Shown one piece after another: positions 211 through 13,809 of a stretch of DNA of 20,000 bases. The notes under the pieces are model-generated. The model ran no database searches. It saw nothing but the letters and a program-made list of their open reading frames with translations, and was not told where the DNA came from. Source of the stretch: an uncultured virus (IMG/VR IMGVR_UViG_3300032167_000055) (Duplodnaviria; Heunggongvirae; Uroviricota; Caudoviricetes); the IMG/VR virus record IMGVR_UViG_3300032167_000055; one strand, given 5' to 3'. Position 1 is the stretch's first letter; every line of letters begins with the position of its first letter. The translations under genes were made by a program, and so were the position numbers.

Positions 211-498
211 TTATACTGAATTTAACTCAAATAAATATATTACACAACTGCACTGTTGAGATGATCCGTATAAATTATATAATGTAACTGTTACTGAAGT
301 TGCCGATGTATTAGATATAGTAACTGAACATAAAAAAGTTGAAGAAATAAATGCATGTGGACTTTTTGTATAATTATATGAAGACAAATCTAGGGTGATT
401 ATTTCATAAGCGTTTACCGCAATAGGATTTGTACTTTTAACTGAAAATGATCTAAAATTTCTAAAAACAATTCCCGATTTATCCACCTTACTATTTAG
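211..498 (-). CDS. Silent tail-fibre C-terminal cassette 1 (LNSKVDKSGIVF...FELNSV, 95 aa)
   Basis: Frame opens inside repeat copy 1 right after a TAG; no RBS before the GTG at 486; Ser/Thr-rich beta-type sequence. The tail-fibre call is mainly by analogy with the other five cassettes. Confidence 0.65.
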   Translation of the reverse strand, partial: LNSKVDKSGIVFRNFRSFSVKSTNPIAVNAYEIITLDLSSYNYTKSPHAFISSTFLCSVTISNTSATSVTVTLYNLYGSSQQCSCVIYLFELNSV

Positions 499-567
499 CT
501 AAATAAAGAATCTGTAAGTCCCGAGAAATATCGAGACTTACAGAAATTTTACTTAACTAAATTCCGT
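488..567 (-). repeat. 80-bp cassette-junction element, copy 1 (putative recombination site plus terminator)
   Basis: ttactatttagctaaataaagaatctgtaagtcccgagaaatatcgagacttacagaaattttacttaactaaattccgt; near-identical to five other copies. Confidence 0.97.
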
Positions 568-589
568 CCCCACACTCCAAAAAATCATA

Positions 590-725
590 CAAAAAGAACG
601 GAGCTGGTGAGAGTAGGTAGCCAAATCCTACTCTCACCAGAACAAAAGTTATTACATGCAAGTTTACCTCTAAATAATGAGTAATCTGCTCTATTATTGG
701 AATTTTCATATGGATATTATCCATT
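590..725 (-). ncRNA. Candidate small RNA A (~135 nt)
   Basis: AACA-N6-TA at 736..725, 5' hairpin atggat-aat-atccat, motif tatgaaaattccaat (710..696), 14-bp terminal hairpin at 604-640 followed by a U-tract; no RBS-led ORF. Confidence 0.5.
604..640 (-). terminator. Intrinsic terminator upstream of cassette 1
   Basis: ctggtgagagtagg / cctactctcaccag, 14-bp perfect stem; T-rich tail on the minus strand. Confidence 0.7.
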
Positions 726-748
726 AAAGATTTGTTATACTAATAAAA

Positions 749-779
749 AAATAAAGGGATCCAAAAGATCCCTTTATTT
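749..779 (-). terminator. Terminator of the DHH gene
   Basis: aaataaagggatc-caaaa-gatccctttattt directly after the stop at 784. Confidence 0.8.
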
Positions 780-783
780 CGTC

Positions 784-2157
784 TTACTTATAATCATCCA
801 TATTAGCTTTATCTGTATTCCAGAATAAAGTTAAGATATTAATAAACTTATCCTGAGACAAAACAGCACCAGCAGCATGTTTGTGACCACCACCATTTAA
901 ATCTAAAGTAGCAATCTTACCACAATCAGGAGCATCATCAATAAGATTACTACTCCTGAAAGATGCAGTACGAGAATTTGTAAATAACATAATAACTAAT
1001 TTGATTTTTGGATAATCTTTTAAGAGAGTATTTCCTACAAAAGACGCATCCGTGACATCCTGAAGAATTACGGCTACGTTATCTTCATATTTAAGCTCTT
1101 CATTACATTCAAGATTCAACGCATATTTAATTCGTTCGTATGGAAATACTCTTATACCTTTAGTCACTCCTCTGTATTCTGTCTTTCTCTGATCAAACAA
1201 GAAAGACAATTTCAAAAGTTCTGATTTCGGAAGAGTTGGAAGATATTCATATTCACCAACTAAAGGTATATCATCTAATGAATCATAAACCATATTTAAG
1301 AATCTGAAGAAATCTCCTTTATAGCTTTTCCATAAAACAGTTAAAGCATCCATGTAATCATGGTCAATAACACAATCTCTATCTTTCTTTGAAAACTCAA
1401 AGGTATCATACATAGATGTATGATATACAAGTTTGATCAAGTTTATCATGAAATTTAAATCATGAAAATCAAATAATCCCATATCAAGAAGAAATCTAAA
1501 GTATACATATGCGGCAGACCTTTCTGCAACAGAAAGACCACCATCGAGTTTATATTGTACAATCAATTCTTCAATTTCTCGTTTTATATCTTTTGCACCA
1601 CATAATTTATTAAATGTAATATCTAATTCCGGAACTTTACACTTTCCATGTGTTTTGAAATAGTTATCGCAGATACATACTCTTTCAGGAAGATAAAATT
1701 CATCTTCATTGAAATTATATGTAAATTTACCAAATTCAGGGTTTGATGCGTGATGATCAAATTCCCAAAATCCAATATGTGAATCAGGATAGCAATCAGT
1801 GATAACTTTCTTCACATAATCAATAAATACAGTAGGTACATGTAAATCAGTTACAATAATAAGGTATTCAAGGTTTTCACCTTCTATTGTGTCTGATGTA
1901 TAATGTGAACTGCATGCATATTCAGTATAGTCTGTAATATTTTTATGCGTAATCTTTTCTTGTATAATAGATTCCATCTGCTCTGTATTAGCAGGCATTC
2001 CAATTATAAATGGTTTAGCAAAATAAGCATCACCACAATTTACACCACCAAGACATATAGAATTGGTTAAGATTCCACACACAATACCATCGATGTCTGC
2101 ACTATGTGTGAAGTTAATAGGGATAATAATTTTAGTGTTTTCTACAGTAGTTTCCAT
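784..2157 (-). CDS. DHH/DHHA1-family phosphoesterase
   Basis: Motifs THSADIDG, VTDL, FDHH, YDTF and C-terminal GGGHKHAAG; AAGGAG RBS. Confidence 0.9.
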   Translation of the reverse strand: METTVENTKIIIPINFTHSADIDGIVCGILTNSICLGGVNCGDAYFAKPFIIGMPANTEQMESIIQEKITHKNITDYTEYACSSHYTSDTIEGENLEYLIIVTDLHVPTVFIDYVKKVITDCYPDSHIGFWEFDHHASNPEFGKFTYNFNEDEFYLPERVCICDNYFKTHGKCKVPELDITFNKLCGAKDIKREIEELIVQYKLDGGLSVAERSAAYVYFRFLLDMGLFDFHDLNFMINLIKLVYHTSMYDTFEFSKKDRDCVIDHDYMDALTVLWKSYKGDFFRFLNMVYDSLDDIPLVGEYEYLPTLPKSELLKLSFLFDQRKTEYRGVTKGIRVFPYERIKYALNLECNEELKYEDNVAVILQDVTDASFVGNTLLKDYPKIKLVIMLFTNSRTASFRSSNLIDDAPDCGKIATLDLNGGGHKHAAGAVLSQDKFINILTLFWNTDKANMDDYK

Positions 2158-2168
2158 TTTGTCCTCCT

Positions 2169-2510
2169 TTAAAATGTAAATCTGTAACCACCTTTTACAG
2201 CAGCTCCATTTCCTTTTTCTAAAACCTGTATTTCAGTAAGGTATTTAATAGATTTTTTTATTTTCTTTACTTTGATTCCTAATTCTTCACTCATTAGATC
2301 TATATGGATCTTTGTAAAATTATTAGGATCAGGTCCTGGATTTGTCGTATTAATACGACGGGTTTTGTTATAACCACTTAATACTGTAAGCAAATAGCAA
2401 ATTACTTTAAGATCTACAAAACTCAGATCATATAATGTAATAAGTTCTCTAAATGCTTCTTTTGGGACGTGAAAATTTTGTCTAAATTGTGCTACATCCA
2501 CTGTACTCAT
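2169..2510 (-). CDS. Hypothetical protein, possibly winged-helix DNA-binding
   Basis: AAGGAG RBS; basic 113-aa ORF with an HTH-like segment (IDLMSEELGIKVKKIKKSIKYL) and a wing-like end (GGYRFTF). Confidence 0.6.
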   Translation of the reverse strand: MSTVDVAQFRQNFHVPKEAFRELITLYDLSFVDLKVICYLLTVLSGYNKTRRINTTNPGPDPNNFTKIHIDLMSEELGIKVKKIKKSIKYLTEIQVLEKGNGAAVKGGYRFTF

Positions 2511-2537
2511 TTTAAATCTCCTTTACTATAAAAATTT

Positions 2538-2575
2538 ATAGTTGAGAAGGTTTTTACTATATCCTTCTCAACTAT
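2538..2575 (-). terminator. Stem-loop after the helicase gene (terminator or processing site)
   Basis: atagttgagaagg / ccttctcaactat, 13-bp stem. Confidence 0.6.
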
Positions 2576-2597
2576 TTCAAATAAATAATATACTTCT

Positions 2598-3782
2598 TTA
2601 AATTGCAAGTGTGACAGATTCACTTGCTCTTGTAACCATTGTGTATAATACCTTCCTCTTAAAATCTTCAGCACCATAAAGTTCGGCAAGAGCAGTTACA
2701 TTAGGCCACTGAGATCCTTGAGATGAATATACAGTGATAGCATATGCAAATTCAAATATATTCATTCCAAAGCTCATGGCTGCTTGTGATTCACTCTTTT
2801 CAAGTCTCATCAAGTGCTTATAATCAATAGGAAGATTTCTAAATGTTTTAGGTGTAAAATCTGGTCTAAAATCGCATTCAATACTTCTACCATTATAAGT
2901 TTCTTTATTGACATAATCTAGGAAACCTGTGGTTCCGTTTGTAAGAAATAAATTATCTCCAACAGATTTAGACCAATCGTTTCGTCTACATATTACTTTT
3001 TCTCCAACATATGGAAGATCAAGTCTTGTAAATCCACAAAATTCCTCACGGAATAAGTTGTTTATATGTTGCTTAAGGTTATTTGTTACAGTTAATACAA
3101 TATCTGCATTTTTAAGCTGATATGGATCTAAATCTTTCTTTCGTATAATTGCACTAGAACCATATACACCGGGTCTTAAATCATAACCATCAAGAATTCT
3201 ATGAGCAATATATACAATTGGATTGTCTTCAGCCTGTCTCATGAGTTTTCGTAACGTTACATTAGGATCAACCAAAAATACAGATTTTCCAAATACTGGA
3301 GGTAACTGATTTGTATCACCTAATGCGAAAATAGGTAATCCAAAATTAGTTATGTCAGTTTTCATCTCTTGATTAATCATCGTAGCTTCATCAATACAAA
3401 TAGCTTTATAACGTTTTTTAAGATGATCTTTCGGTCTGAAAACGCCTTTTAATTTAGGTTTTCCATTAGGAAGTATAATAGCTCTTCCATCTTCATCTCT
3501 ATCTATTTCTTTTATATATTCGTAAAATGCTGAATGACATGTAATAGCAGGTAAACTATTTCGGGCTAACTGTGTAGCAGCTTTACCTGTATATGCAACA
3601 AATAACACATCATGAAAAGGATCAAGACCTAATTCTTGTAATATGTATTTTATAGAAGTCGTCTTTCCTGTACCAGCAGCGCCAGATATTTCAAATATCT
3701 GATCTGAACTGGCAGAATGCCACCATCTACTTGCTTCAATACCAGCAAATATCTGGTCTGAATTTAATTCAATTCTTCCCAT
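2598..3782 (-). CDS. Dda/RecD-like superfamily 1B DNA helicase
   Basis: Walker A GAAGTGKTT, AYTGKAA, DEATM, GDTNQLPPV, MRQA, YAITVYSSQGSQW, YTMVTRA; AAGGAG RBS. Confidence 0.92.
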   Translation of the reverse strand: MGRIELNSDQIFAGIEASRWWHSASSDQIFEISGAAGTGKTTSIKYILQELGLDPFHDVLFVAYTGKAATQLARNSLPAITCHSAFYEYIKEIDRDEDGRAIILPNGKPKLKGVFRPKDHLKKRYKAICIDEATMINQEMKTDITNFGLPIFALGDTNQLPPVFGKSVFLVDPNVTLRKLMRQAEDNPIVYIAHRILDGYDLRPGVYGSSAIIRKKDLDPYQLKNADIVLTVTNNLKQHINNLFREEFCGFTRLDLPYVGEKVICRRNDWSKSVGDNLFLTNGTTGFLDYVNKETYNGRSIECDFRPDFTPKTFRNLPIDYKHLMRLEKSESQAAMSFGMNIFEFAYAITVYSSQGSQWPNVTALAELYGAEDFKRKVLYTMVTRASESVTLAI

Positions 3783-3824
3783 AAAATAATCTCCTTTTAA
3801 GATTTTATGGGACTGTCACTATAA

Positions 3825-3940
3825 TGAAAAATGAAAGTGAGATAGGATACAAAAATGTATCCTATCTCGAAAGGTACTTTGTGTTCGATTTTGATTCTTT
3901 AAAAAGACCAAATTAGTATTTTTATATGGAATTATCCATT
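3825..3940 (-). ncRNA. Candidate small RNA B (~115 nt)
   Basis: AACA-N6-TA at 3951..3940; the 5' end aatggataattccatat resembles candidate A; 13-bp terminal hairpin at 3839-3868. Confidence 0.4.
3839..3868 (-). terminator. Intrinsic terminator downstream of cassette 2 / candidate RNA B
   Basis: gagataggataca-aaaa-tgtatcctatctc followed by a T-rich tract on the minus strand. Confidence 0.75.
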
Positions 3941-3964
3941 ACAAATCTGTTTATCATTTATTAA

Positions 3965-4567
3965 TTATTTATACATAATGAAATATGATCTCATATTTGT
4001 ATTTGTTAATCCTAACCAATAAGGAGATTTTATGATTACTGATGTTGAAGTTTTTTCATATACATCTGAAGCACTAACAAATTTTCTATTAGTACCATTA
4101 CTTGTATGCCAGTTTGACACTGAATAAGTTCCATCTGACATTAAGAAACAAGCTGTTCCTACGGCACCACTCTTAGCTTCAACAATATATCCTAGTAATT
4201 GATTAAAATCAGATGGTGAAATATATGATGTTACATCAGTAGTCCAAGGTTTATATATAACAAACTTAGCTTCAATTTCCGCTTGTATCCATTTACCATC
4301 ATGTAAACTTTTAAAAGGGGTTACTGTATCAGCACCGCTTGGTATGTATCCCCAATTTCCTTCCGGATCTTGTCCAAATGAAATATTAGTTAAACTATTA
4401 TGAGTATGACTCTCAAATGAGAACCCACCTAAGTCATACCATCCATCTATTGTACATTTTAACTTTGAACCAGTCCAACCAATATTAACCGTATTAGAGC
4501 TTTGATCTACACCGCCTCCTTGTCTAACAGGAACAAATCCTAGTGAATTTTGCTTGTTACTATTTAG
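3965..4567 (-). CDS. Silent tail-fibre C-terminal cassette 2 (200 aa, start-less, absent from the ORF track)
   Basis: Hand translation LNSNKQNSLGFVPVRQGGGVDQSSNTVNIGWTGSKLKCTIDGWYDLGGFSFESHTH...FGQDPEGNWGYIPSGADTVTPFK...YFIMYK*; the LGFxPVxQGGG..IGW.GS.LK.T.D and WGYIPSGADTVTPF segments are recurrent phage tail-fibre motifs. Confidence 0.85.
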   Translation of the reverse strand, partial: LNSNKQNSLGFVPVRQGGGVDQSSNTVNIGWTGSKLKCTIDGWYDLGGFSFESHTHNSLTNISFGQDPEGNWGYIPSGADTVTPFKSLHDGKWIQAEIEAKFVIYKPWTTDVTSYISPSDFNQLLGYIVEAKSGAVGTACFLMSDGTYSVSNWHTSNGTNRKFVSASDVYEKTSTSVIIKSPYWLGLTNTNMRSYFIMYK

Positions 4568-4636
4568 CTAAATAAAGAATCTGTAAGTCTCGAGAAATAT
4601 CGAGACTTACAGAAAACTTACTTAACTAAATTCCGT
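4557..4636 (-). repeat. 80-bp cassette-junction element, copy 2
   Basis: Same sequence as copy 1, with the perfect 14-bp inner stem tctgtaagtctcga/tcgagacttacaga and the aaactt variant. Confidence 0.97.
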
Positions 4637-4735
4637 CCCCCCTGTCACCACTCTTCACAAAGTCAATATATCATATCTATAAATCAATCGCAAGAGATAT
4701 GATTTTACTATATAACTAACCTATACATTCATATG

Positions 4736-5350
4736 TTAAGGTTTTATAACAACACTCGTTAATGTTAATTTACCATAACCAGTACCATCAAAATATCCTT
4801 CAGTGTCATATCGGATTCTCAGTTTATATGTGCCTGATAATGATGGTAATGTAAATGTTTTATTAACAGCTGTAGATTGAAGTACTCCTCTACCATCAGC
4901 ACTGCCACTTATACTTGCAAGACTCATAACAGTAGTTGTTGCTCCTGTTGATGTATTGTATAATTCTACTGCCATCTTATTAACACCATAATGGTTACCA
5001 TTCCAATATACAGTACCAGTTATAGTTAATCTTTGTCCTGATGGAGTAAAGGTATTTGTTGAAAGTAAGTACGCATATCCATAACCATTATATCCACCAC
5101 CAGCATCAATTTGAATAGTGATACTATTACCAGATAAAACTATAGGATTAGAAGGACGGTCATAATCAATCCAACCATCAGTATAACCACTTGATTGAAG
5201 AGTGTATGACGTAATATTAATGTCAGTAATCTTTTCCCATACTGTAGTAGTTGTAGAACCTTTTACAACATTTACTTTTGTTACATTAGTATTACCAACT
5301 TTAATCGTTCCTGATGAAGGTATAGTGGTTCCATTTACAATAATAGACAT
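4736..5350 (-). CDS. Putative tail-fibre tip adhesin / receptor-binding partner of cassette 3
   Basis: GGAGGT RBS; N-terminus MSIIVNGTTIP..G.I.V....VT.V...VW shared with 5989..6474 and 11436..12338; variable Thr/Gly/Tyr-rich C-terminus. Confidence 0.7.
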   Translation of the reverse strand: MSIIVNGTTIPSSGTIKVGNTNVTKVNVVKGSTTTTVWEKITDINITSYTLQSSGYTDGWIDYDRPSNPIVLSGNSITIQIDAGGGYNGYGYAYLLSTNTFTPSGQRLTITGTVYWNGNHYGVNKMAVELYNTSTGATTTVMSLASISGSADGRGVLQSTAVNKTFTLPSLSGTYKLRIRYDTEGYFDGTGYGKLTLTSVVIKP

Positions 5351-5379
5351 ATTATACCTCCCTAAATTGTAATAGTAAG
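5318..5379. repeat. 62-bp exact direct repeat spanning the fibre/adhesin gene junction (copy 1)
   Basis: aggtatagtggttccatttacaataatagacatattatacctccctaaattgtaatagtaag is identical to 6442..6503. Confidence 0.92.
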
Positions 5380-5883
5380 TGTTGTACCGGATAATGACGC
5401 TCTACAAAGTGTAAAATCTGTAGTATCTACTCTACATACAATACTGGATCCATTCCATCCTAAATACATTATATTTGAATAAGATGGATGCCTTCTGACC
5501 AAGTTTCCATTAGATTCTACTCCAGTCATTGTTGCATAATTTAGAGATGACAGATATGTTATATCTACAAGTTGTCTCCATGTAAATATTTCATGACCAG
5601 CTGAAATAACTCTATAATGAATACCATTATCATTAACCATTGGAAATGCTACTTCAGTATAGTATCCATCTCCATTTGCATGATTCATTCGTATTTTATG
5701 AAACCATGTATTTGCAACAGGTGTTGAATTCTTCTTTGGACCTGACGTTGTTCCATCTCCGGTCGTATTCATATATTCTAATCCAGATTTACCATATACT
5801 GGAGCATTAGAACCTGAATGTAATAGATATGCTAATCCTACAGCAGTTTCTCCAGAAATAACTTTATTTACGTTACTATTTAG
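5362..5883 (-). CDS. Silent tail-fibre C-terminal cassette 3 (173 aa, start-less)
   Basis: ORF 5362..5772 extends upstream in frame to the repeat (LNSNVNKVISGETAVGLAYLLHSGSNAPVYGKSGLEYMNTT...); contains MYLGWNGSSIVCRVD, resembling cassette 2; ends LSGTTLTITI. Confidence 0.82.
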   Translation of the reverse strand, partial: LNSNVNKVISGETAVGLAYLLHSGSNAPVYGKSGLEYMNTTGDGTTSGPKKNSTPVANTWFHKIRMNHANGDGYYTEVAFPMVNDNGIHYRVISAGHEIFTWRQLVDITYLSSLNYATMTGVESNGNLVRRHPSYSNIMYLGWNGSSIVCRVDTTDFTLCRASLSGTTLTITI

Positions 5884-5952
5884 CTAAATAAAGAATCTGT
5901 AAGTCTCGAGAAATATCGAGACTTACAGAAAACTTACTTAACTAAATTCCGT
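5873..5952 (-). repeat. 80-bp cassette-junction element, copy 3
   Basis: Identical to copy 2. Confidence 0.97.
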
Positions 5953-5988
5953 TATAACTAACCTAGAAATATAAAATATCTTTGATTT

Positions 5989-6474
5989 TTATGTGAAAGT
6001 ACATGTCAAAGATGTCGTTATAGTATGCGTAGATCCTATATCTCCACCAGATACTCCTATAGTAACGGAAGATTTTCCAGAAATATTTATTTCTAAAGTT
6101 TTTGTATATGTAGAACCTTGAGATGTTCCATCCCATTGTGTTCGTTTGTATAAAGAATAAACAGTTCCATCAACAACAACATTAGCATCTACTCCGTTAC
6201 CATCCCAGCTATTCCATGAAGCAGTTTTTACAGAAGCACTTATAGTTAATTTAGTATGACCACTAAGTGATACTGTATCTAACGTAGAACTATAAGTTCT
6301 GTATTCTTGATCATCACTTGAATTATCCGTATATGAATATGTTTTAGTTATTGGTGTTGCTGATGATTTCCATACACTAGTTCCATTACATTTAACTTCT
6401 GTTATTTGCACACCATTAACTACAATTTTACCCTTTGATGTAGGTATAGTGGTTCCATTTACAATAATAGACAT
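5989..6474 (-). CDS. Putative tail-fibre tip adhesin / receptor-binding partner of cassette 4
   Basis: GGAGGT RBS; N-terminus MSIIVNGTTIP identical to 4736..5350, divergent C-terminus. Confidence 0.7.
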   Translation of the reverse strand: MSIIVNGTTIPTSKGKIVVNGVQITEVKCNGTSVWKSSATPITKTYSYTDNSSDDQEYRTYSSTLDTVSLSGHTKLTISASVKTASWNSWDGNGVDANVVVDGTVYSLYKRTQWDGTSQGSTYTKTLEINISGKSSVTIGVSGGDIGSTHTITTSLTCTFT

Positions 6475-6503
6475 ATTATACCTCCCTAAATTGTAATAGT
6501 AAG
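6442..6503. repeat. 62-bp exact direct repeat spanning the fibre/adhesin gene junction (copy 2)
   Basis: Identical to 5318..5379. Confidence 0.92.
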
Positions 6504-6821
6504 AGTAGTTCCAGATAATGTCATATGACCTATATTCCTCATGTTTTTATATCCAAAATTACCATCACTTTTCTTATATCTGAATAGTAAATCATAACCA
6601 TTATTTGCATCAGTATAAATATATGGTCCTAAACCACTAGCTGAGCCTAAATGGATACTTGCAAAAAATGGAGAAGAACCTGTGGCAGGGCGTGATTGTG
6701 AATCCCATATAGCGTTATTGGATGAATTATATAATACAAGATTTCCATCACTTTGTAATATAAATGTATATCCGTTTTGTGCAGATTTAAAACAAGCACC
6801 ACTAGGTCCATTACTATTTAG
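6486..6821 (-). CDS. Silent tail-fibre C-terminal cassette 4 (111 aa, start-less, absent from the ORF track) with a bulb-type-lectin-like motif
   Basis: Hand translation LNSNGPSGACFKSAQNGYTFILQSDGNLVLYNSSNNAIWDS...GHMTLSGTTLTITI*; QSDGNLVLY fits QxDxNxVxY. Confidence 0.82.
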   Translation of the reverse strand, partial: LNSNGPSGACFKSAQNGYTFILQSDGNLVLYNSSNNAIWDSQSRPATGSSPFFASIHLGSASGLGPYIYTDANNGYDLLFRYKKSDGNFGYKNMRNIGHMTLSGTTLTITI

Positions 6822-6890
6822 CTAAATAAAGAATCTGTAAGTCCCGAGAAATATCGAGACTTACAGAAAACTTACTTAACTAAATTCCGT
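6811..6890 (-). repeat. 80-bp cassette-junction element, copy 4
   Basis: Consensus with the gtcccgag and aaactt variants. Confidence 0.97.
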
Positions 6891-6956
6891 GACGACCACC
6901 CTACTCTCCAAAAATATAGAAAAATCTTATACCTATCTAGATTTTCTTAATTTTTC

Positions 6957-6968
6957 AACATTTTTGTA
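6957..6968 (+). promoter_or_regulatory. Putative phage-RNAP late promoter AACA-N6-TA
   Basis: aaca-tttttg-ta upstream of the RBS of 6992; near-identical context at 13776. Confidence 0.65.
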
Positions 6969-6991
6969 ATGTATAGAAAGGAAGTGAAAAA

Positions 6992-7711
6992 ATGAACTTA
7001 TCTTCTCTTATTACAAGAATAAAATTAGAACTCGGTATATATGCTATAGCATTACCTATTGAAGATATAGATGGAACTATTAGTAAAGTAATTAAAGATA
7101 TAACTTTAAGAACTTATTCCCAGTATTTTCCACAATATGATATTATAAGAAAACCTAGTGCTGAAATAGAAAAGGCTTCTAGAAATCTTGAATATACTGA
7201 TTTGATTTTAGAGGTTCCTACAGGTCAAGAAATAGTTTTTGTTGCTGATGTATATTATGATGCATCTGATGTCAGTGGCATTGGTTATTATGGTGCAGGT
7301 ATGCCTATATACACACCAAATATGTTAGCAGATGTTTTAACTACTAATGTAGGAGCTGATTTAACAAATATGATGTTTCCTAAATTAACATGGAGATTTG
7401 ATACTCCTAATAGGCTTAGAGTATGGCATTTATATGGAGGAAGCATATTTATTAAATATGCTAAACTTCATGATCAATCACTTGCATCTATTCCTGTATC
7501 TCAAGAAGAAACTTTCTTTAAAATTGCATTAATTGATGTAAAGAAAGTATTATATAGTGTACTTAAACACTACAACGAACTTGAAACTGCTCACGGACGT
7601 ATCAGTTTAAAAATTGATGACTGGGCTGAAGCAGATAGTAAACGTGAAGAATTGCTAAGAGAGTGGGATGATAATTTCCACTTAGAGCAAAAGACCATTT
7701 ATTGGGCATAA
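6992..7711 (+). CDS. Probable virion structural protein (head-tail neck, T4 gp13-like)
   Basis: GAAAGGAAG RBS, late-type promoter; the N-terminus LITRIKLELG...ID and the helical C-terminus resemble myophage neck proteins (by eye only). Confidence 0.5.
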   Translation: MNLSSLITRIKLELGIYAIALPIEDIDGTISKVIKDITLRTYSQYFPQYDIIRKPSAEIEKASRNLEYTDLILEVPTGQEIVFVADVYYDASDVSGIGYYGAGMPIYTPNMLADVLTTNVGADLTNMMFPKLTWRFDTPNRLRVWHLYGGSIFIKYAKLHDQSLASIPVSQEETFFKIALIDVKKVLYSVLKHYNELETAHGRISLKIDDWAEADSKREELLREWDDNFHLEQKTIYWA

Positions 7712-7715
7712 AAAT

Positions 7716-7745
7716 ATCCCTTGGAGAAATTACTCTCCAAGGGAT
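7716..7745. terminator. Bidirectional terminator between convergent genes
   Basis: atcccttggaga / tctccaagggat between the stops at 7711 and 7749. Confidence 0.8.
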
Positions 7746-7748
7746 TAT

Positions 7749-8195
7749 TTAAAGCAAATATTCATATCCGCGTCTTGTTATATCAGAATAATTTAATTCT
7801 AACATACCATAAAAAGTTAATTCTGTTTCTTCATTTGTTTTTGGGTCTTTATACATTATATGAAATAATAACTTCTTTTCTTGTAAATATAAACGTAACC
7901 ATAAAAAGAAAAATCGTTCATTTACAGGAAGAATATCAATATGTAATTCCTTTTTAAATTCAGGATTATTAAGTTCATATACTATAAGACCTAAAATAGG
8001 AAGATCGAATATTTCAAGACCAAATATAGGTCTAATAAAAGTCTGATCTCCAATAGTTTCATTTTTATAATAACCTGTAAAATTCTTATTATCTAATATT
8101 TCAAGAACGTGTTCTTCTACAAACGGAACTATTCGTTTATTAAGTATGCATGAAAAAATCGTTTTAAATCTATCTATATCCATTTTTCCTATCAC
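7749..8195 (-). CDS. Hypothetical protein
   Basis: 148-aa ORF, GTG start with AGAAGG upstream, ends at the shared terminator. Confidence 0.7.
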   Translation of the reverse strand: MIGKMDIDRFKTIFSCILNKRIVPFVEEHVLEILDNKNFTGYYKNETIGDQTFIRPIFGLEIFDLPILGLIVYELNNPEFKKELHIDILPVNERFFFLWLRLYLQEKKLLFHIMYKDPKTNEETELTFYGMLELNYSDITRRGYEYLL

Positions 8196-8264
8196 AATAA
8201 AACCTTCTTTCTAATAATAGTTTTAACTTATAGTTAAAATAAATATAGAAAGAGAGTTTATATT

Positions 8265-8729
8265 ATGATACCTATTTTACCTATAATACTAGGAAATAAA
8301 ACGAATGAAGTTACTACTGATACTATTAATCGTAGAAGGTGTGAAGAAATAAAAAATAAAGAAATTAAAAAAAACAAAACACCAACTAATGGTGTAACTT
8401 TACATAAAACTCCAGGACCTGAAATAGATTTTGAGGATCCTTTTTTAAAAACTTCCATGGAATTATTGAAAGATATGGAAGAAGAATTAAATGAAGATTA
8501 CGATCCAAATATTGAACTTGAAGAACGTATTCTTGATATGGAGACATTTTTAGTTGACACTTATGCAAATCAAATGTCATTGGTTCAACTTCTTATTAAT
8601 AAAGGTATGATATCATCTGGTGAGTACTTAGAATATAAAAAACTCATAAAGAAACAAGAAGATATTAATGCATTATATTCCGATATTCAAACTCGGAGAA
8701 AAATTTTAAATGAAAGGAAAGAAATATAA
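8265..8729 (+). CDS. Hypothetical protein (charged, helical)
   Basis: 154-aa ORF with AGAAAGAGAG upstream; stop abuts the next ATG (taatg). Confidence 0.75.
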   Translation: MIPILPIILGNKTNEVTTDTINRRRCEEIKNKEIKKNKTPTNGVTLHKTPGPEIDFEDPFLKTSMELLKDMEEELNEDYDPNIELEERILDMETFLVDTYANQMSLVQLLINKGMISSGEYLEYKKLIKKQEDINALYSDIQTRRKILNERKEI

Positions 8730-8730
8730 T

Positions 8731-9189
8731 ATGTTAAATTATGATTCAACTGTAGATGCATTGGAGCATAAGAAAATTGTTGAGAAAACAATGAAAGTTA
8801 TAATTGAAGATCTTGTTTATAGAGCAAGTATTCATGATAACTCTAAGTTAGAATCTCCTGAAAGGGAAGGATACGATAGTTTGATTCCTGAACTTAGAAA
8901 AGCAAAATACGGATCAGAAAAGTATAATCAGATTCGTAAAGATATGATGGATAGATGTTTATCTCATCACTATGAGGTAAACAGGCATCATCCAGAACAT
9001 TTTGAAAATGGTATTGAAGAATTTACTTTAGTCGATTTAGTCGAATATTTCGTTGATACCTATTCAGCGTCAACTAAATCAGATACACCTTATTCAGAAG
9101 GTGTTAAAATCAATGCTAAAAAACATAATCTTCCTGATGTATTGGTCAAAATATTTGAAAATACAGTAACGGAGTATTTTCCGAAATAA
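8731..9189 (+). CDS. DUF5662-like HD-type putative metal-dependent hydrolase
   Basis: Motifs H..HDNSK, HHYEVNRHHPEHF, DLVEYFVD; the ATG at 8731 follows AAAGGAAAG and is preferred over 8710. Confidence 0.7.
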   Translation: MLNYDSTVDALEHKKIVEKTMKVIIEDLVYRASIHDNSKLESPEREGYDSLIPELRKAKYGSEKYNQIRKDMMDRCLSHHYEVNRHHPEHFENGIEEFTLVDLVEYFVDTYSASTKSDTPYSEGVKINAKKHNLPDVLVKIFENTVTEYFPK

Positions 9190-9198
9190 CAAATATTT

Positions 9199-9308
9199 AA
9201 ATCAGAATTTGTGGTCTGATATGAATATTCCATCTGATTGGTTTTGTTTGACATTTTGACCTCTTAAAATATGACCTTGTAGAGAAATCTACAAGGTCAT
9301 ATATGTTT
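9199..9308 (+). ncRNA. Candidate small RNA D (~110 nt)
   Basis: aaca-aatatt-ta at 9188..9199, motif tatgaatattcca at 9220..9232, terminator at 9269..9302. Confidence 0.45.
9269..9302. terminator. Bidirectional terminator
   Basis: atatgaccttgtaga-gaaa-tctacaaggtcatat, 15-bp perfect stem. Confidence 0.85.
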
Positions 9309-9706
9309 TATGCATCAAGTTTTGCAAAAAGTTCTGCTCTTTCTTCAGCAGTAATTTCACCATTCTTTTCGCTCTCATAAATCATAAGAGCGATTTCATC
9401 TCTAGTGAAACCCTCATCAATAGCAGATTCAACTACAGACTCTTCTGCAGTAGGATTTTCTACAACAGGTTCCTCAGATGCACCCTCAACTACAGACTCT
9501 TCTGCAGTAGGTTCAGTAGTAGCATCCACGGATTCTTTTATATTGATAAGAGTCTGAGTGATATCAGCAAGCATCTTAACATCTTCCTCCTTCTGCATAT
9601 CAGCAGACTCACAGAAGTTAAGCATACTTTCAGAAAGATCTTTATCAATAAGATTTTCATCAACTGCTTCAAAAACAGCTAATTTAACTCTTTTAACATT
9701 ATCCAT
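9308..9706 (-). CDS. Acidic protein with an internal duplication, possibly prohead/inner-head protein
   Basis: AGAAAGGAAG RBS, AACA-N6-TA at 9747..9736; PTAEESVVE twice (26-bp direct repeat at 9429-9454 and 9486-9511); similar N- and C-terminal helices (LAVFEAVDENLI / LMIYESEKNGEI). Confidence 0.65.
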   Translation of the reverse strand: MDNVKRVKLAVFEAVDENLIDKDLSESMLNFCESADMQKEEDVKMLADITQTLINIKESVDATTEPTAEESVVEGASEEPVVENPTAEESVVESAIDEGFTRDEIALMIYESEKNGEITAEERAELFAKLDA

Positions 9707-9893
9707 GATTGATTACTTCCTTTCTATAAGTTTATTAATACCTTGTTTTGGTATAAAAAAGAAAAAAAAATAAATTGCACCAAAGGTGCTGTACGAATAA
9801 ACACCATACAACTATGTACAAGCACCTTGTACACGAAAATAATATACTTTTATAAATCGTTACTTTTACAAAGTAAATACTAATTTTTTCATT

Positions 9894-9904
9894 GATATAT
9901 TATT
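9894..9904 (+). promoter_or_regulatory. Putative early promoter motif GATATATTATT
   Basis: Same 11-mer at 19733..19743; GTATATTATT on the minus strand at 9847..9838 and 2593..2584; all are intergenic. Confidence 0.55.
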
Positions 9905-9934
9905 TTAATAGATAAAAGAAAGGAGTGATCGTTA

Positions 9935-10780
9935 ATGAATTACTGGTCAAAAAAGACACTAAACAAACAACATGCAATTGAACACCTTACAGAAGTATGT
10001 AAGTATTTCGCAAAAGAAATCTCAAAAAGTATTGAAAATACCGAAGAATATACAGAAGATGATTGTAGAATGTTTCTTATTCGTAACTTAGAGAGTGAAG
10101 ACTCTATGGGTTATTGTATTTCTGTAGATTTTGAAAGAAAAGGTATCATCGAAGCAGTTCTCGATAATAAAAGTAAATCGAAAATTGCAATACTCAATTT
10201 TGCATCTTATAAAAATCCTGGTGGGATGTATCTCAATGGTTCTTCTGCTCAAGAAGAGTGTATTTGTCATTCCAGTACATTATTTCCAGTATTAGAATCG
10301 TTCAATGATACGTTCTATCATTTCAACAGAGAAAATAAAAACAAAGCACTCTATACGAATAGAATGCTGTATAGTCCTGATATAGTGATTATGGAAGGAA
10401 ACAAAAAACGATTAGTAGATGTTATCACTATTGCAGCACCTAATAGAGGAGCTGCACTTAAAAACGGAGTATCCGAAGATGAAATTGAAACTACTATGAG
10501 AGAACGAATAATTTGTACACTCGAGGTTGCTAAATCTCATGGTGTTAAAACATTATTCCTTGGAGCATTCGGTTGTGGAGTCTTCAAAAACAATCCTGAA
10601 GTAGTTGCAAGAATATTTTGTGATGAACTTAAAAAGTATCCAGAGATGAAATTCGTATTTCCTATTCCTGATGAAGAGAATTACAATGCATTTTCATCAA
10701 TATTAACAGAAACATTTGTTAGAGGATTGCTTGGAGATAATCCATCAGGGAAAGATCCAATATCAATAACTGAATTTTAA
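9935..10780 (+). CDS. TIGR02452/DUF2263-family macrodomain protein (microbial PARG-like ADP-ribosyl hydrolase)
   Basis: LNFASYKNPGGMYLNGSSAQEECIC (GGx6-8QEE-type catalytic loop), LYSPDI, VDVITIAAPN, LGAFGCGVFKN; AGAAAGGAG RBS. Confidence 0.9.
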   Translation: MNYWSKKTLNKQHAIEHLTEVCKYFAKEISKSIENTEEYTEDDCRMFLIRNLESEDSMGYCISVDFERKGIIEAVLDNKSKSKIAILNFASYKNPGGMYLNGSSAQEECICHSSTLFPVLESFNDTFYHFNRENKNKALYTNRMLYSPDIVIMEGNKKRLVDVITIAAPNRGAALKNGVSEDEIETTMRERIICTLEVAKSHGVKTLFLGAFGCGVFKNNPEVVARIFCDELKKYPEMKFVFPIPDEENYNAFSSILTETFVRGLLGDNPSGKDPISITEF

Positions 10781-10781
10781 G

Positions 10782-10815
10782 ATAAGAGGGTGGTGGTTAT
10801 TCATCACCCTCTTAT
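10782..10815 (+). terminator. Intrinsic terminator
   Basis: ataagagggtggtg / catcaccctcttat followed by a T-run. Confidence 0.85.
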
Positions 10816-10885
10816 TTTTTTTTCTATAAAGACGTTTTCGTAAATTATCACATTATTATAAGAAAAATGAAAGGGATGGTTTAAA

Positions 10886-11377
10886 ATGAATAGTGTGTTA
10901 TTAAATGATGAAAGAACCGATCTCTGTTTATCTTTACCTCCGTTATTAAAACGGCTCGCAATTATGTCATATAAGTTATCTTCTAAATTCTTTGATTCTC
11001 TCAAAGTTAGATGCTTATCCCATGGTATTGAATATCCAGGGGATGACTTTTTGTCTGATGTAGCAGTACTGATGTACTTGTTACCTGGTAAAGTTATGAC
11101 AGAAGAGGAACTTTCTATACGTTATACCGCTTTAAACTATTCTATACATATTAATGAATTTTTACGTATCATGAAAGTAATGAATGAATTCATTCTTCTT
11201 GATAAGAGTAATGCATTAAAGATGTATACTGTAATAGAAAAAGCGAAACATGAAGACCCTATTCTGTTTATCCTCTGTACATTAGACTATGCTTCGAAGC
11301 TTAAAGTATATCTTAACCACAGATACGACGACGTCGGTTGTGTGTTGTCTGATTGTATGGATCATTTTCTTGAATAG
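10886..11377 (+). CDS. Hypothetical protein
   Basis: 163-aa ORF with an AAAGGGA RBS and a downstream terminator. Confidence 0.75.
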   Translation: MNSVLLNDERTDLCLSLPPLLKRLAIMSYKLSSKFFDSLKVRCLSHGIEYPGDDFLSDVAVLMYLLPGKVMTEEELSIRYTALNYSIHINEFLRIMKVMNEFILLDKSNALKMYTVIEKAKHEDPILFILCTLDYASKLKVYLNHRYDDVGCVLSDCMDHFLE

Positions 11378-11378
11378 G

Positions 11379-11414
11379 AAAAGACCAGTGAGTGTTTTTA
11401 CTCACTGGTCTTTT
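11379..11414. terminator. Bidirectional terminator
   Basis: aaaagaccagtgagt / actcactggtctttt. Confidence 0.85.
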
Positions 11415-11435
11415 AACTAACCTATTTTCATAAAT

Positions 11436-12338
11436 TTAGACTAATGTAATTTTAGCCCAACCATTTCCATCTCGAACACCATTTTCCATAGAACCTGATG
11501 TGACTCCTCCTATATATCCAGAACCACCACCAGCTCCAGACCATCCTCCACCAGGACCACCACCATATAATCCGCCTCCGCCACCAGCAGAATTATGGAT
11601 ATCACTATTAGCTTTTCCGAAAAATCCTCTATATAGGTCAGGGGTTTCACCTATATCATTATAACCACCGGCAGTTTGTGTACCGCCAGTTCCATATGAA
11701 AAGTAATCATCTGAAACATAATCTCCTATAACGGTTCCATTTCCACCAGTAGTTCCACCACCAGTACCACCAACACCATAATGCGTATCATCGTGATATG
11801 AAGCGCCTCCTCCACCACCAGCTACAATAAATAATCCGTTTGTAGATCCATGATCAGCTAACGTTGAGTTGAATGTACCTATATGAGTACATCCTCCTCC
11901 ACTTCCATTATAATATAATACTGTAGGTGCATTAGCACCACCATTATATCCACCAGGGTAAGTTATTGGCTGAGTGTTTATTTCACTACCTCTTTGACTA
12001 CAATCTGTTCCTTGTCCACCCACACAGACATATATAGTTTGACCTGCTGTAAGATTTGCATATCCTTTAGCATATCCTCCAAAACCACCTGCAATATGGT
12101 TAGTTACATGACCGCCTCGTGCACCCTTAACTTCAAGAAGGTATGTACCTGTAACAGGTACAGTAAACGCTTGTACTCCTCCTGTATAATTAAATTCTTT
12201 AGATGAAAAACTAGAAACTTGCCATACAGTTGTTGTTACTCCATCTTTCACCACATTAACTTTAGTTATTTTAGTAGATCCAACTTTTAAACTACCTTCT
12301 GTAGTTGGTATAGTAGTATTTCCAACTTTAATAGCCAT
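11436..12338 (-). CDS. Glycine-rich-domain adhesin / receptor-binding partner of cassette 5
   Basis: GGAGGT RBS; N-terminus related to the MSIIVNGTTIP proteins, then FNYTGGVQAFTVPVTGTYLLEVKGARGG, GGYNGG, IVAGGGGG, GGGGGLYGGG, GGGSGYIGGV, GNGWAKIT (polyglycine domain). Confidence 0.82.
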   Translation of the reverse strand: MAIKVGNTTIPTTEGSLKVGSTKITKVNVVKDGVTTTVWQVSSFSSKEFNYTGGVQAFTVPVTGTYLLEVKGARGGHVTNHIAGGFGGYAKGYANLTAGQTIYVCVGGQGTDCSQRGSEINTQPITYPGGYNGGANAPTVLYYNGSGGGCTHIGTFNSTLADHGSTNGLFIVAGGGGGASYHDDTHYGVGGTGGGTTGGNGTVIGDYVSDDYFSYGTGGTQTAGGYNDIGETPDLYRGFFGKANSDIHNSAGGGGGLYGGGPGGGWSGAGGGSGYIGGVTSGSMENGVRDGNGWAKITLV

Positions 12339-12351
12339 ATCACAATACCTC

Positions 12352-12999
12352 CTATAAAGTAATAGTTAATGTTGTACCACTTAAAGAAAAATGCGAAGAT
12401 CTCATTATTTTTGATATAGTTCCACTATTATTAATATATTTAAGATTTCCATCATTATCTAAATATAATATGCCTGCAACAACTCCAGAATTATGAAAAC
12501 CATAACTAGCTCTATTTGAAGTTGTACTAGCATTACTAGCCTCTGCTGAAAAATGGGCTGCAGTATAGTTATTATTAGCTGGGGCAAATGCCATAGATAC
12601 TTTTTGTGCTCCAGTGAATGAATTCGATGTTTTTACTGCTTTTGCATTAAGTTGTGTTTGTATATCGCTGGTAACATTTGATAAATATCCAAGTTTATCA
12701 ATAGTAGTTTTATTATTTATTTTATAATTGCTATCAATTGTCATTGTTTTATTAAATGGGTGAATCTGAATCATTGCAGATTCACCTACTACTGTCGTAC
12801 CATCTTCAGATTTAAGTCCAAATAATCTAAAATATCCTTTATAGTTATCCAAAGTTAAATTAGAATACTTCTTTCCATCGTCAGCTGCACTTAACTGTAA
12901 TTCACCACCTTCAGCACCATCAGTTCCACCTGTTAAAGGTTTCAATTGAAGATTGCCTTTCATTCGTCCGCCATGTACAGTCACCATATTACTATTTAG
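12352..12999 (-). CDS. Silent tail-fibre C-terminal cassette 5 (215 aa)
   Basis: In frame from the repeat: LNSNMVTVHGGRMKGNL (GGxMxGxL fibre motif); internal LGYLSNVTSDIQTQLNAK; ends LSGTTLTITL; the ATG at 12987 has no RBS. Confidence 0.85.
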   Translation of the reverse strand, partial: LNSNMVTVHGGRMKGNLQLKPLTGGTDGAEGGELQLSAADDGKKYSNLTLDNYKGYFRLFGLKSEDGTTVVGESAMIQIHPFNKTMTIDSNYKINNKTTIDKLGYLSNVTSDIQTQLNAKAVKTSNSFTGAQKVSMAFAPANNNYTAAHFSAEASNASTTSNRASYGFHNSGVVAGILYLDNDGNLKYINNSGTISKIMRSSHFSLSGTTLTITL

Positions 13000-13068
13000 C
13001 TAAATAAGAAATCTGTAAGTCTCGAGAAATATCGAGACTTACAGAAATTTTACTTAACTAAATTCCGT
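12989..13068 (-). repeat. 80-bp cassette-junction element, copy 5
   Basis: Consensus with the taaataagaaatctg variant. Confidence 0.97.
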
Positions 13069-13100
13069 CCACTCCCACATGATATAAAATTATTAATTAT

Positions 13101-13649
13101 TTATAAAAAAGATAGACGTTTTTCATGATCCTGTAAAATTTTAAGAATTGGTGTGACCAATTTAGCATAATCTAAACCTTCAATTACATTTTCGCTAAAA
13201 ATAACTGGATACGAAATATAATCATACACTTCTTCTGCTATAAGACCTACACAATTAATTCCGTTTTCTTTATTTTTATAATCATACGTTACAGGTCTTA
13301 ATTTTAAAATTTGTTTAGCATATTCTAAATCAAGATCTTTGACATTTTCTTTATATCGTATACTACTAGGATTTGTAAATGCAGATGCATATATAGGTAC
13401 ATTAGCAGTCACACCTGTATTATTACAATGAATTTCCTTAGCACAAAGTCTCGCGACATATGAATTAGATGCTGATACTAAATATACATCTCTATTATCT
13501 AACGCTCTATATTGACTAGCCTTTATATTGTTATTTACAATAACAACACCTGTACACGTTCCACCACCAAGCGGTAAATAACTATGAGTGTGAGAACTCG
13601 TTGCATATCCACTATGAGTATGATTAGTATCTGCTTTGTTACTATTTAG
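13101..13649 (-). CDS. Silent tail-fibre C-terminal cassette 6 (182 aa) with an intramolecular chaperone (peptidase S74-like) domain
   Basis: In frame from the repeat: LNSNKADTNHTHSGYATSSHTHSYLPLGGGTCTG..., continuing into ORF 13101..13412 with SSIRYKENV, LRPVTYDYK, GLIAEEV, LDYAKLV. Confidence 0.88.
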   Translation of the reverse strand, partial: LNSNKADTNHTHSGYATSSHTHSYLPLGGGTCTGVVIVNNNIKASQYRALDNRDVYLVSASNSYVARLCAKEIHCNNTGVTANVPIYASAFTNPSSIRYKENVKDLDLEYAKQILKLRPVTYDYKNKENGINCVGLIAEEVYDYISYPVIFSENVIEGLDYAKLVTPILKILQDHEKRLSFL

Positions 13650-13718
13650 CTAAATAAAGAATCTGTAAGTCCCTAGAAATATCGAGACTTACAGAAATTT
13701 TACTTAACTAAATTCCGT
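13639..13718 (-). repeat. 80-bp cassette-junction element, copy 6
   Basis: Consensus with the gtccctag variant near the loop. Confidence 0.97.
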
Positions 13719-13775
13719 CAACCCACCCAACCTTATTACAAGGTTAACACAATACTCTCATATTTTAACTATTAA

Positions 13776-13787
13776 AACATTTTTTTA
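13776..13787 (+). promoter_or_regulatory. Putative phage-RNAP late promoter AACA-N6-TA
   Basis: aaca-tttttt-ta followed by atgtataggaagg, matching the context at 6957. Confidence 0.65.
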
Positions 13788-13809
13788 ATGTATAGGAAGG
13801 TGGATTATT

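Follow-up and report, generated by a model that had tools for sequence, protein, structure and literature searches.

A genome-dispersed library of silent tail-fibre tips and a probable mobile fibre expression module in large gut phages

Site-specific recombination is known to switch phage tail fibres in compact loci. In the Gin/G segment of phage Mu, the Cin/C segment of P1 and the Min system of p15B, a serine invertase lies beside a compact invertible segment and its action changes the host range; in the host-range switches known from phages, a single small invertible locus provides between two and a handful of tips. The R64 shufflon (Rci) and the Rin shufflons of Bifidobacterium prophages provide several alternative C-termini, are clustered beside their recombinase, work by inversion only and use sites with only one arm conserved between partners. 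In the vsa system of Mycoplasma pulmonis, which depends on the tyrosine recombinase HvsR, a single expression site contains the promoter together with the constant 5' part of the coding sequence, both promoter and 5' end are missing from the silent genes, and recombination at a short site brings about inversions within one bacterial locus. Integrons, finally, employ the integrase IntI, an attI site and attC cassettes, the attC site having the order RYYYAAC...GTTRRRY around a foldable imperfect palindrome. Here we describe a 20,000-nt stretch of DNA from an uncultured virus (IMG/VR record IMGVR_UViG_3300032167_000055), referred to as the window, in which copies of an 80-nt element precede different silent tail-fibre tips. 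Together with the remainder of the genome it likely represents a DNA-level tail-fibre tip switch with a single mobile module made up of a promoter and the constant fibre region.

The 80-nt element and the silent tip cassettes

The genome, that of a phage which we call phage A, is a single contig of 278,849 bp (32% G+C), and the window corresponds to the minus strand of its positions 111838-131837. Six element copies, all in one orientation and 85-100% identical over 93 nt, are found at the positions between 488 and 13639 given by the first-pass annotation of this DNA. They lie on the minus strand at window positions 488..567 (copy 1; genome 131271-131350), 4557..4636 (copy 2; genome 127202-127281), 5873..5952 (copy 3; genome 125886-125965), 6811..6890 (copy 4; genome 124948-125027), 12989..13068 (copy 5; genome 118770-118849) and 13639..13718 (copy 6; genome 118120-118199). 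Copies 1 to 5 are called terminator-like on the cassette strand (five of the six); copy 6 has one stem mismatch and the CTAGGG variant.

The element is composed of site L (ACGGAATTTAGTTAAGTA, its first 18 nt), a 51-nt stuffer consisting of a 14-bp hairpin and a T-run, and site R, an 11-nt core (CTAAATAGTAA) encoding LNSN. On the minus strand of the window its 3' end reads ...TAG CTA AAT AGT AA and continues in all six cases into a stop-free frame of 95-215 aa, and the similarity between copies ends immediately past the core, that is, after the 11 coding bases counted at first pass. Folded as single-stranded DNA, the element has an outer and an inner stem of 14 bp each, separated by a 4x4 internal loop (-17.7 kcal/mol, z = -7.3, the values of copy 3), and 0 of 200 shuffled sequences folded equally well. 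Stop codons are present in all three frames, near both ends of the element. Since these stops are combined with a terminator-like hairpin, the element is non-coding and precedes the tips. The first-pass description of tips fused in frame to the element thus holds for the in-frame continuation, but not for the element as a part of the protein.

A BLAST search of the phage A genome revealed 18 copies of the element, spread over 19-172 kb, with 13 on the plus and five on the minus strand. The library of six recognized in the window is therefore real but incomplete, the window holding merely six of 18 copies that occur genome-wide on both strands. Open frames of 94-457 aa follow in phase after 16 of the 18 copies, which includes ten cassettes outside the window, as had been predicted. 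In phage A only 416 of 37,987 frames (1.1%) after a stop triplet are open for at least 94 codons, so that this association is far beyond chance. Two decayed elements without a tip frame were noted outside the window, at genome 41439-41518 (-) and 96095-96174 (+); one of them has lost its R half, and the other carries a 1-nt insertion in the core (CTAAATTAGTA). An orphan match to the 11-nt core at genome 102735 sits in non-coding sequence and was discarded as a chance match. Recoding of TAG was rejected because the element has both TAA and TAG in the cassette frame, and insertion of a miniature inverted-repeat transposable element was rejected because it leaves unexplained the in-frame placement before tips at 16 of 18 copies in phage A and at 35 of 35 copies in the sister phage described below. 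The stuffers vary at a small number of positions in a mosaic fashion, and the loop TATCTC is unique to the copy at genome 153792 among the 18 copies. The 10 nt upstream of L are G-rich (0.4-0.8 versus a background of 0.16), and it may be speculated that this tract is a weak second arm of the L site.

All window tips are encoded on the minus strand and open with LNSK or LNSN. Tip cassette 1 (211..498, 95 aa, LNSKVDKSG...) has a GTG right after LNSK, without a Shine-Dalgarno match. Tip cassettes 2 (3965..4567, 200 aa, LNSNKQNSLGFVPVRQGGG...), 4 (6486..6821, 111 aa, LNSNGPSG...) and 6 (13101..13649, 182 aa) are free of ATG, GTG and TTG over the first 40 codons; as had been remarked at first pass, the list of open reading frames (ORFs) with such starts indeed lacks 3965-4567 and 6486-6821. 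Of the tail-fibre hallmarks pointed out there, HTH repeats and a Peptidase_S74 intramolecular chaperone were located in tip 6, and LSGTTLTIT forms the end of tip 3 (5362..5883, 173 aa, LSGTTLTITI), tip 4 (LSGTTLTITI) and tip 5 (12352..12999, 215 aa, LNSNMVTVHGG..., LSGTTLTITL). The tips are highly diverse, with no detectable similarity in most pairs. Genome-wide, Peptidase_S74 occurs in three tips of phage A and an H-type lectin domain in one (E 8e-07); a weak B_lectin match in tip 4 (E 0.004) is below the cut-off.

Each of the three tips ending in LSGTTLTIT is followed by a partner gene led by a Shine-Dalgarno sequence. The partner ORFs after tips 3 (4736..5350, -, 204 aa, MSIIVNGTT..., with its own Shine-Dalgarno sequence and ATG) and 4 (5989..6474, -, 161 aa, MSIIVNGTT...) match no Pfam family, and the one after tip 5 (11436..12338, -, 300 aa) is a glycine-rich ALK_LTK_GRD protein (E 1.3e-23). 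An 85-nt repeat, 94% identical between window positions 5312-5396 and 6436-6520, covers the tip ends (LSGTTLTITI*) and the partner ORF starts (MSIIVNGTT...). The C-terminal motif LSGTTLTIT is also present in the distant fibre homologues P0012, P0013 and P0015 and may provide a strand to which the downstream protein docks. The internal ...IQTQLNAK of cassette 5, to which attention had been drawn earlier, is present as well; this stretch (...SDIQTQLNAKAV...) resembles the junction motif QNQIDTLNSN of the constant fibre part and may have been left over from an earlier junction.

The expression site and its alternative DNA states

The first-pass annotation had predicted, elsewhere in the genome, a long fibre gene containing the core in frame without hairpin and TAG. 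Such a gene was found about 4 kb past the left edge of the window. It is the only complete fibre gene of phage A (genome 136210-138090, 626 aa), is preceded by AAAGGAGG before the ATG and reads ...QGYLLQNQIDT-LNSN-MSSYLPLSGGTL..., the tip beginning with MSSYLPLSGG; the core lies in frame at genome 137332. The L arm recurs a single time outside the elements, at genome 135681, 530 nt upstream of the fibre ATG. Thus, the expression site has the same L and R as the cassettes, with 1,633 bp between them in place of the 51-nt stuffer. This 1,633-bp module contains a promoter-like region, a small ORF on the opposite strand, a ribosome-binding site and 377 codons of constant fibre, and it is present in single copy in both complete genomes, phage A and the sister phage G011. 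Upstream of its ribosome-binding site a motif similar to AAAACATTnTTTTAAT is found, which also precedes five other genes of phage A and six genes of the sister phage and which may be a promoter. A repeated motif, AAAACATTnTTTTAATGTATAG, followed by a ribosome-binding site, is located in the window at 6941-6981 and 13760-13800 (+), upstream of the genes at 6992 and 13810; in either phage, similar motifs are found before the fibre module and about five further genes, and the motif may represent a phage promoter consensus. In phage A this small ORF (genome 135847-136017, -, beyond the window) encodes 56 aa behind a strong Shine-Dalgarno sequence (MSYIDNLRKLYNEM...) and would travel with the module; it is missing from the module of the sister phage, which is shorter.

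Fragments of phage A from several samples are present in IMG/VR, and 23 loci of 3,035 bp were compared in them. At 22 of the 23 loci the sequence is 100% identical to the reference, and all differences lie between L and R. Contig G001 is collinear with genome 57.9-146 kb, but it is 1,582 bp shorter at the expression site (site 137). There the module is absent and an ordinary 80-nt element stands directly before the tip MSSYLPLSGG. This element equals the reference copy at 153792 (0 of 80 differences), the one with the loop TATCTC. In contig G002, genome 133210-137342 is joined via the 11-nt core to 153861-156869, both parts being 100% identical to the reference, and the constant part continues into the tip of cassette 153792 (KNYPPTWTF...); apart from the missing 16,529 bp the contig is collinear. 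Contig G003 has a different stuffer type at site 153792, with four mismatches in 3,035 bp, all of them in the stuffer. The other element sites compared between contigs are unchanged. The states of G001 and G002 are as expected if sites 137 and 153 had exchanged the module and the TATCTC stuffer in a single reciprocal event. G002 itself is either the deletion product of a single exchange or the path of an assembler through the module in a mixed population. As the shared 11 nt are shorter than any usual k-mer, reads that span module, core and tip 153 must exist.

A search of viral contigs with the 29-nt junction returned G002 only, and a metagenome search with the same 29 nt gave no matches. Logan contigs of four runs are fragmentary, and their listed joints have sides of 21-30 nt, with none at cores. 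Contigs carrying tip 137 start 19 nt left of the core in one run and exactly at the core in another, which matches branch points of a k=31 graph, although this is only a hint.

Further fusions were obtained with the constant region as query against 5.8 billion proteins. Homologues that are 95% (P0003, P0004), 74% (P0005, P0006), 71% (P0007) and 66% (P0008-P0011) identical carry unrelated tips directly after LNS[N/K] or LNCN. The prediction that other tips would be found on the constant part is thereby borne out twice, by the G002 junction at the core and by the 95%-identical public proteins with other tips. P0009 led to the complete sister phage G011 (phage B; 275,512 bp with terminal repeats), in which the constant fibre part ends with ...QIDELNCN and the core is AAACTGCAAC. 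Phage B has 35 elements with L arm GGAACCAATTTTGTTAAGT and R arm ACTTAACAAAACTG, and after all 35 a frame of 89-275 aa is open in phase. In both phages the L and R arms are inverted repeats of each other and the spacing from GTTAAGT to ACAGA is 34 nt, with differing sequence in the middle. One arm position differs between phages A and B, with compensating changes on both sides, which would fit hairpin formation or symmetric protein binding. The tip of P0008 is 99% identical to cassette B185509, which is silent in G011. In L106, an approximately 96% identical relative of G011, the module follows the upstream flank of cassette B143297 and runs into the tip of cassette B142827, with break points exactly at L and at the core; the G011 module is at 186 kb, on the other strand than in the L106 arrangement. 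One phage-B contig carries stuffers of other sites at two sites, with 0 mismatches in the flanks, and 32 of 34 comparisons are unchanged.

All 77 stretches in IMG/VR that match the gapped two-arm pattern belong to contigs of these two phage types. No comparable repeat family was detected in the distant fibre relatives G006, G007 and G008, and a third lineage, sought via a 60%-identical recombinase (P0157), yielded nothing in viral contigs. G007 and G008 (L077-L086), which come from the same sample, both end inside a constant-region homologue and have in common six short repeats (25-58 nt, 91-100% identity) that are dispersed and in opposite orientation; this may be a different switching system.

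Overall, one module is present per genome with exact L and R boundaries, module and stuffer alternate at one site, stuffers change place, and the constant part is fused to tips that are silent elsewhere. The idea that the fibre gene takes on different tips is therefore upheld by the fusions, with the modification that the mobile part appears to be a module of promoter and constant region with two boundaries rather than one.

Proposed exchange, candidate recombinase and alternative explanations

In the mechanism that we propose, the hairpin and stops of the stuffer would keep the following tip silent. Conservative recombination of L with L and of R with R would swap the module against a stuffer, so that promoter and fibre shaft arrive in frame before a new tip together with any downstream partner gene; the partner ORF of tip 3 would probably be co-expressed on arrival of the module. 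The stuffer would be transferred to the old site and the remaining genome would stay collinear. Such an exchange would work for either cassette orientation, even among essential genes, and single exchanges would yield deletion, circle or inversion intermediates. Exchanges in which one element contributes L and the following one R would move whole cassettes, which could explain the scatter of the library. From the junctions described above we infer that the exchange is conservative and site-specific, L with L and R with R; switching would be frequent and programmed, and the tips would alter the host range. In its most specific form this reading describes a natural cassette exchange, in which paired exchanges at two heterospecific sites carry the module from tip to tip, with 17 dispersed tips in phage A and 36 in phage B, and leave a palindromic, self-silencing stuffer where it had been; here we see the chances as evenly divided. 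The same even odds apply to the corollary that a virulent jumbo phage of the nucleus-forming type re-targets its fibre at high frequency while the rest of its genome is not rearranged.

A recombinase, serine or tyrosine, had also been predicted. In the 259 ORFs of at least 90 aa that cover the phage A genome, the only recombinase family match is the 341-aa tyrosine recombinase P0002 (genome 64172-65194, +; Phage_integrase, 5.5e-37, by Pfam). It scores 231.1 bits against the XerA-like family NF040815 (cut-off 220) and stays below the cut-offs of the XerC and XerD equivalogs. P0002 can be aligned to XerA (4a8e) and XerD structures, with conserved Arg, Lys, His-x-x-Arg, His and Tyr positions. The sister phage has a 73% identical protein, and G006, which is without elements, has a 27% relative only. 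A search of viral contigs with P0002 found the same phage and one 38% relative. Other relatives, 54-60% identical, are Lachnospiraceae proteins labelled XerD or integrase and proteins on 180-270-kb contigs. By sequence similarity this hints at a Lachnospiraceae or other clostridial host and at the occurrence of the same enzyme in further jumbo phages. The elements nearest to the P0002 gene are 5-7 kb away from it, and the expression site occupies 135.7-138.1 kb. No match to serine recombinases (Resolvase/Recombinase Pfam families), to reverse transcriptases (RVT families) or to RNA ligase was found in the 259 ORFs. We infer that the Xer-like tyrosine recombinase probably performs the exchange.

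Several observations weigh against a switch of this kind. The assignment of P0002 to L and R is indirect, its gene being about 70 kb from the expression site, and a specialised role of the enzyme is weakened by its nearest cellular relatives, which are ordinary XerD-like proteins of 54-60% identity. In G002 and L106 the L and R junctions belong to different sites, which could reflect true deletions or paths of the assembler through a 1.6-kb module that mixed states have in common. Among the contigs examined, none shows a cleanly relocated module with both flanks from one cassette. Heterogeneity within a sample is deduced from the start positions of Logan contigs, and stuffer replacement could stem from gene conversion among the 80-nt repeats.

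The last point leads to an explanation that does without a dedicated recombinase, namely general recombination or homing-endonuclease repair via L and R or the 80-nt repeats, resulting in mosaicism or gene conversion. Phage A does encode RusA, an SbcC-like protein, helicases and three HNH/NUMOD4 endonucleases, the stuffers are mosaic at few variant positions, and stuffer swaps alone need no module. We nevertheless regard this explanation as unlikely, as the homologies at the boundaries are just 18 and 11 nt (19 and 10 nt in the sister phage) while the break points are always exact, the module is single copy, and the changes stand against zero point differences elsewhere. Occupation of site 137 by the TATCTC stuffer coincides exactly with the junction of the module to site 153, which fits a reciprocal exchange. 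Moreover, arms and 34-nt spacing have been kept between phages whose fibre constant regions are 66% identical at the protein level.

Alternatively, the system might be a dispersed shufflon with R as the only site, in which recombination at the core inverts or deletes the intervening DNA and the shared L is incidental. G002 would be the exact product of one R-R event between direct repeats, the 16,529-bp deletion. However, G001 is without the module at site 137 and yet collinear over 57.9-146 kb. In L106 a different left flank is joined at L, and as this left junction has also moved, recombination at R alone cannot produce it. With 12 of the 16 cassettes in the same orientation as the expression site, such events would furthermore cause deletions of up to 66 kb including structural and replication genes. 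We therefore consider recombination at R alone very unlikely; the first-pass view that simple local inversion does not account for the layout is upheld.

That the cassettes are expressed on their own, from a non-canonical start or by RNA-level joining with the element serving as promoter or leader, is highly improbable. Two window cassettes do have GTG or ATG right after LNS[K/N], and the element heads two minus-strand transcription units. On the other hand, the fusions are present as DNA, for which reason translational bypass and trans-splicing were likewise discarded, the element has stops in all frames, and its terminator-like hairpin points into the cassette. Six of the 16 cassettes contain no ATG, GTG or TTG in the first 40 codons. 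Shine-Dalgarno matches are weak, with one candidate start matching at five of six positions, as compared to 116 of 259 ordinary ORF starts with at least five of six. An Rfam search of the window returned sub-threshold chance matches only, none at gathering level.

Repeats can break or misjoin metagenome assemblies, and several contigs end at elements, but the idea that the alternative junctions are assembly artefacts has a barely perceptible chance of being right, given that the sequence shared at junctions (10-11 nt and 18-25 nt) is below usual assembly k-mers and that like junctions occur in independent collections, i.e. several IMG/VR samples, one metagenome record and proteins derived from ENA/Logan.

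With respect to the phage itself, Pfam matches to pieces of a split multisubunit RNA polymerase, tubulin, the S80 prohead protease, gyrase, NAD ligase and tail tube proteins identify phage A as a phiKZ-like jumbo phage, probably of the nucleus-forming type, and the phages carrying tip libraries appear to be strictly lytic. Phage A is found in sequencing runs from animal gut and faeces metagenomes, with 24 runs listed, all as Logan contigs and none of RNA; the 1.6-kb cassette region has no match in INPHARED phage records. The genes between the cassette islands are unrelated to the tips. In the window they and their neighbours include a UvrD-like helicase (2598-3782, -), a DUF5662 protein (8710-9189, +), a microbial-type PARG (9935-10780, +, E 1.2e-25) and an SbcC/SMC-like ATPase of 860 aa (15568-18150, +).

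Relation to known switching systems

As a recombinational tail-fibre switch, the system would be new in being genome-dispersed and two-sited, with a mobile module and self-silencing stuffers. Full-text literature searches (supplements aside) brought up no description of a dispersed tip library or of a mobile fibre expression module. In a 2026 review on jumbo phages (PMC13282480) the word 'cassette' is absent, and the passages of it that were found do not mention tip switching. Each library holds 17-36 tips ready for use, part of them equipped with lectin or chaperone domains and with partner genes of their own, and the logic of the exchange does not disrupt the genome. An active switch would account for the ability of large gut phages to deal with hosts that are diverse and that change. 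Provided that the proposed mechanism is true, it would also represent a natural two-site exchange with defined short sites, which may be useful as a tool, and single reference assemblies would show one of many host specificities.

With the Gin, Cin and Min systems phage A shares a constant fibre N-terminus that is joined in frame to alternative tips at a short site. It differs from them in that no serine recombinase is found in its ORFs and 12 of the 16 cassettes are in direct orientation, spread over 19-172 kb. Like the shufflons, phage A possesses a tyrosine recombinase and several alternative C-termini, but its recombinase gene at 64172-65194 does not adjoin a clustered invertible set. Programmed inversions favour short distances between the targeted genes, according to a systematic survey (PMC9881135).

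The likeness to integrons consists in promoterless cassettes, a foldable imperfect palindrome, a recombinase related to Xer and a platform that bears the promoter; even the L arm sequence GTTAAGT fits GTTRRRY. In contrast to attC, the order in the element is GTTRRRY...RYYYAAC, i.e. reversed, on both strands. P0002 reaches only 82.7 bits with TIGR02249 (cut-off 265) and 50.6 bits with NF011946 (cut-off 435). Furthermore, the cassettes are not arrayed at the platform, and beyond the promoter the platform contributes two thirds of the protein. Engineered recombinase-mediated cassette exchange is similar in that two heterospecific sites flank either insert and the double exchange spares the rest of the DNA; it is a laboratory method, of which the phage system would be a natural case. 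In the gene conversion systems pilE/pilS, vlsE and tprK a tip would be copied in, whereas in the phage the module appears to move: site 137 in G001 keeps its tip and loses the module, and the stuffer moves reciprocally. Diversity-generating retroelements differ in requiring a reverse transcriptase together with a pair of template and variable repeats; no RVT family match was found in the 259 ORFs of phage A.

In its logic, the closest known system would be the expression-site switching of the M. pulmonis vsa locus, by analogy of their organization. Phage A too has one site that provides promoter and 5' coding part, many silent genes without 5' end and a short junction site. Unlike vsa, the phage system is viral and spread over about 150 kb on both strands with unrelated genes in between, and the exchange observed is collinear and not an inversion. 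Moreover, it uses two distinct boundary sites, and a hairpin stuffer takes the place of the module.

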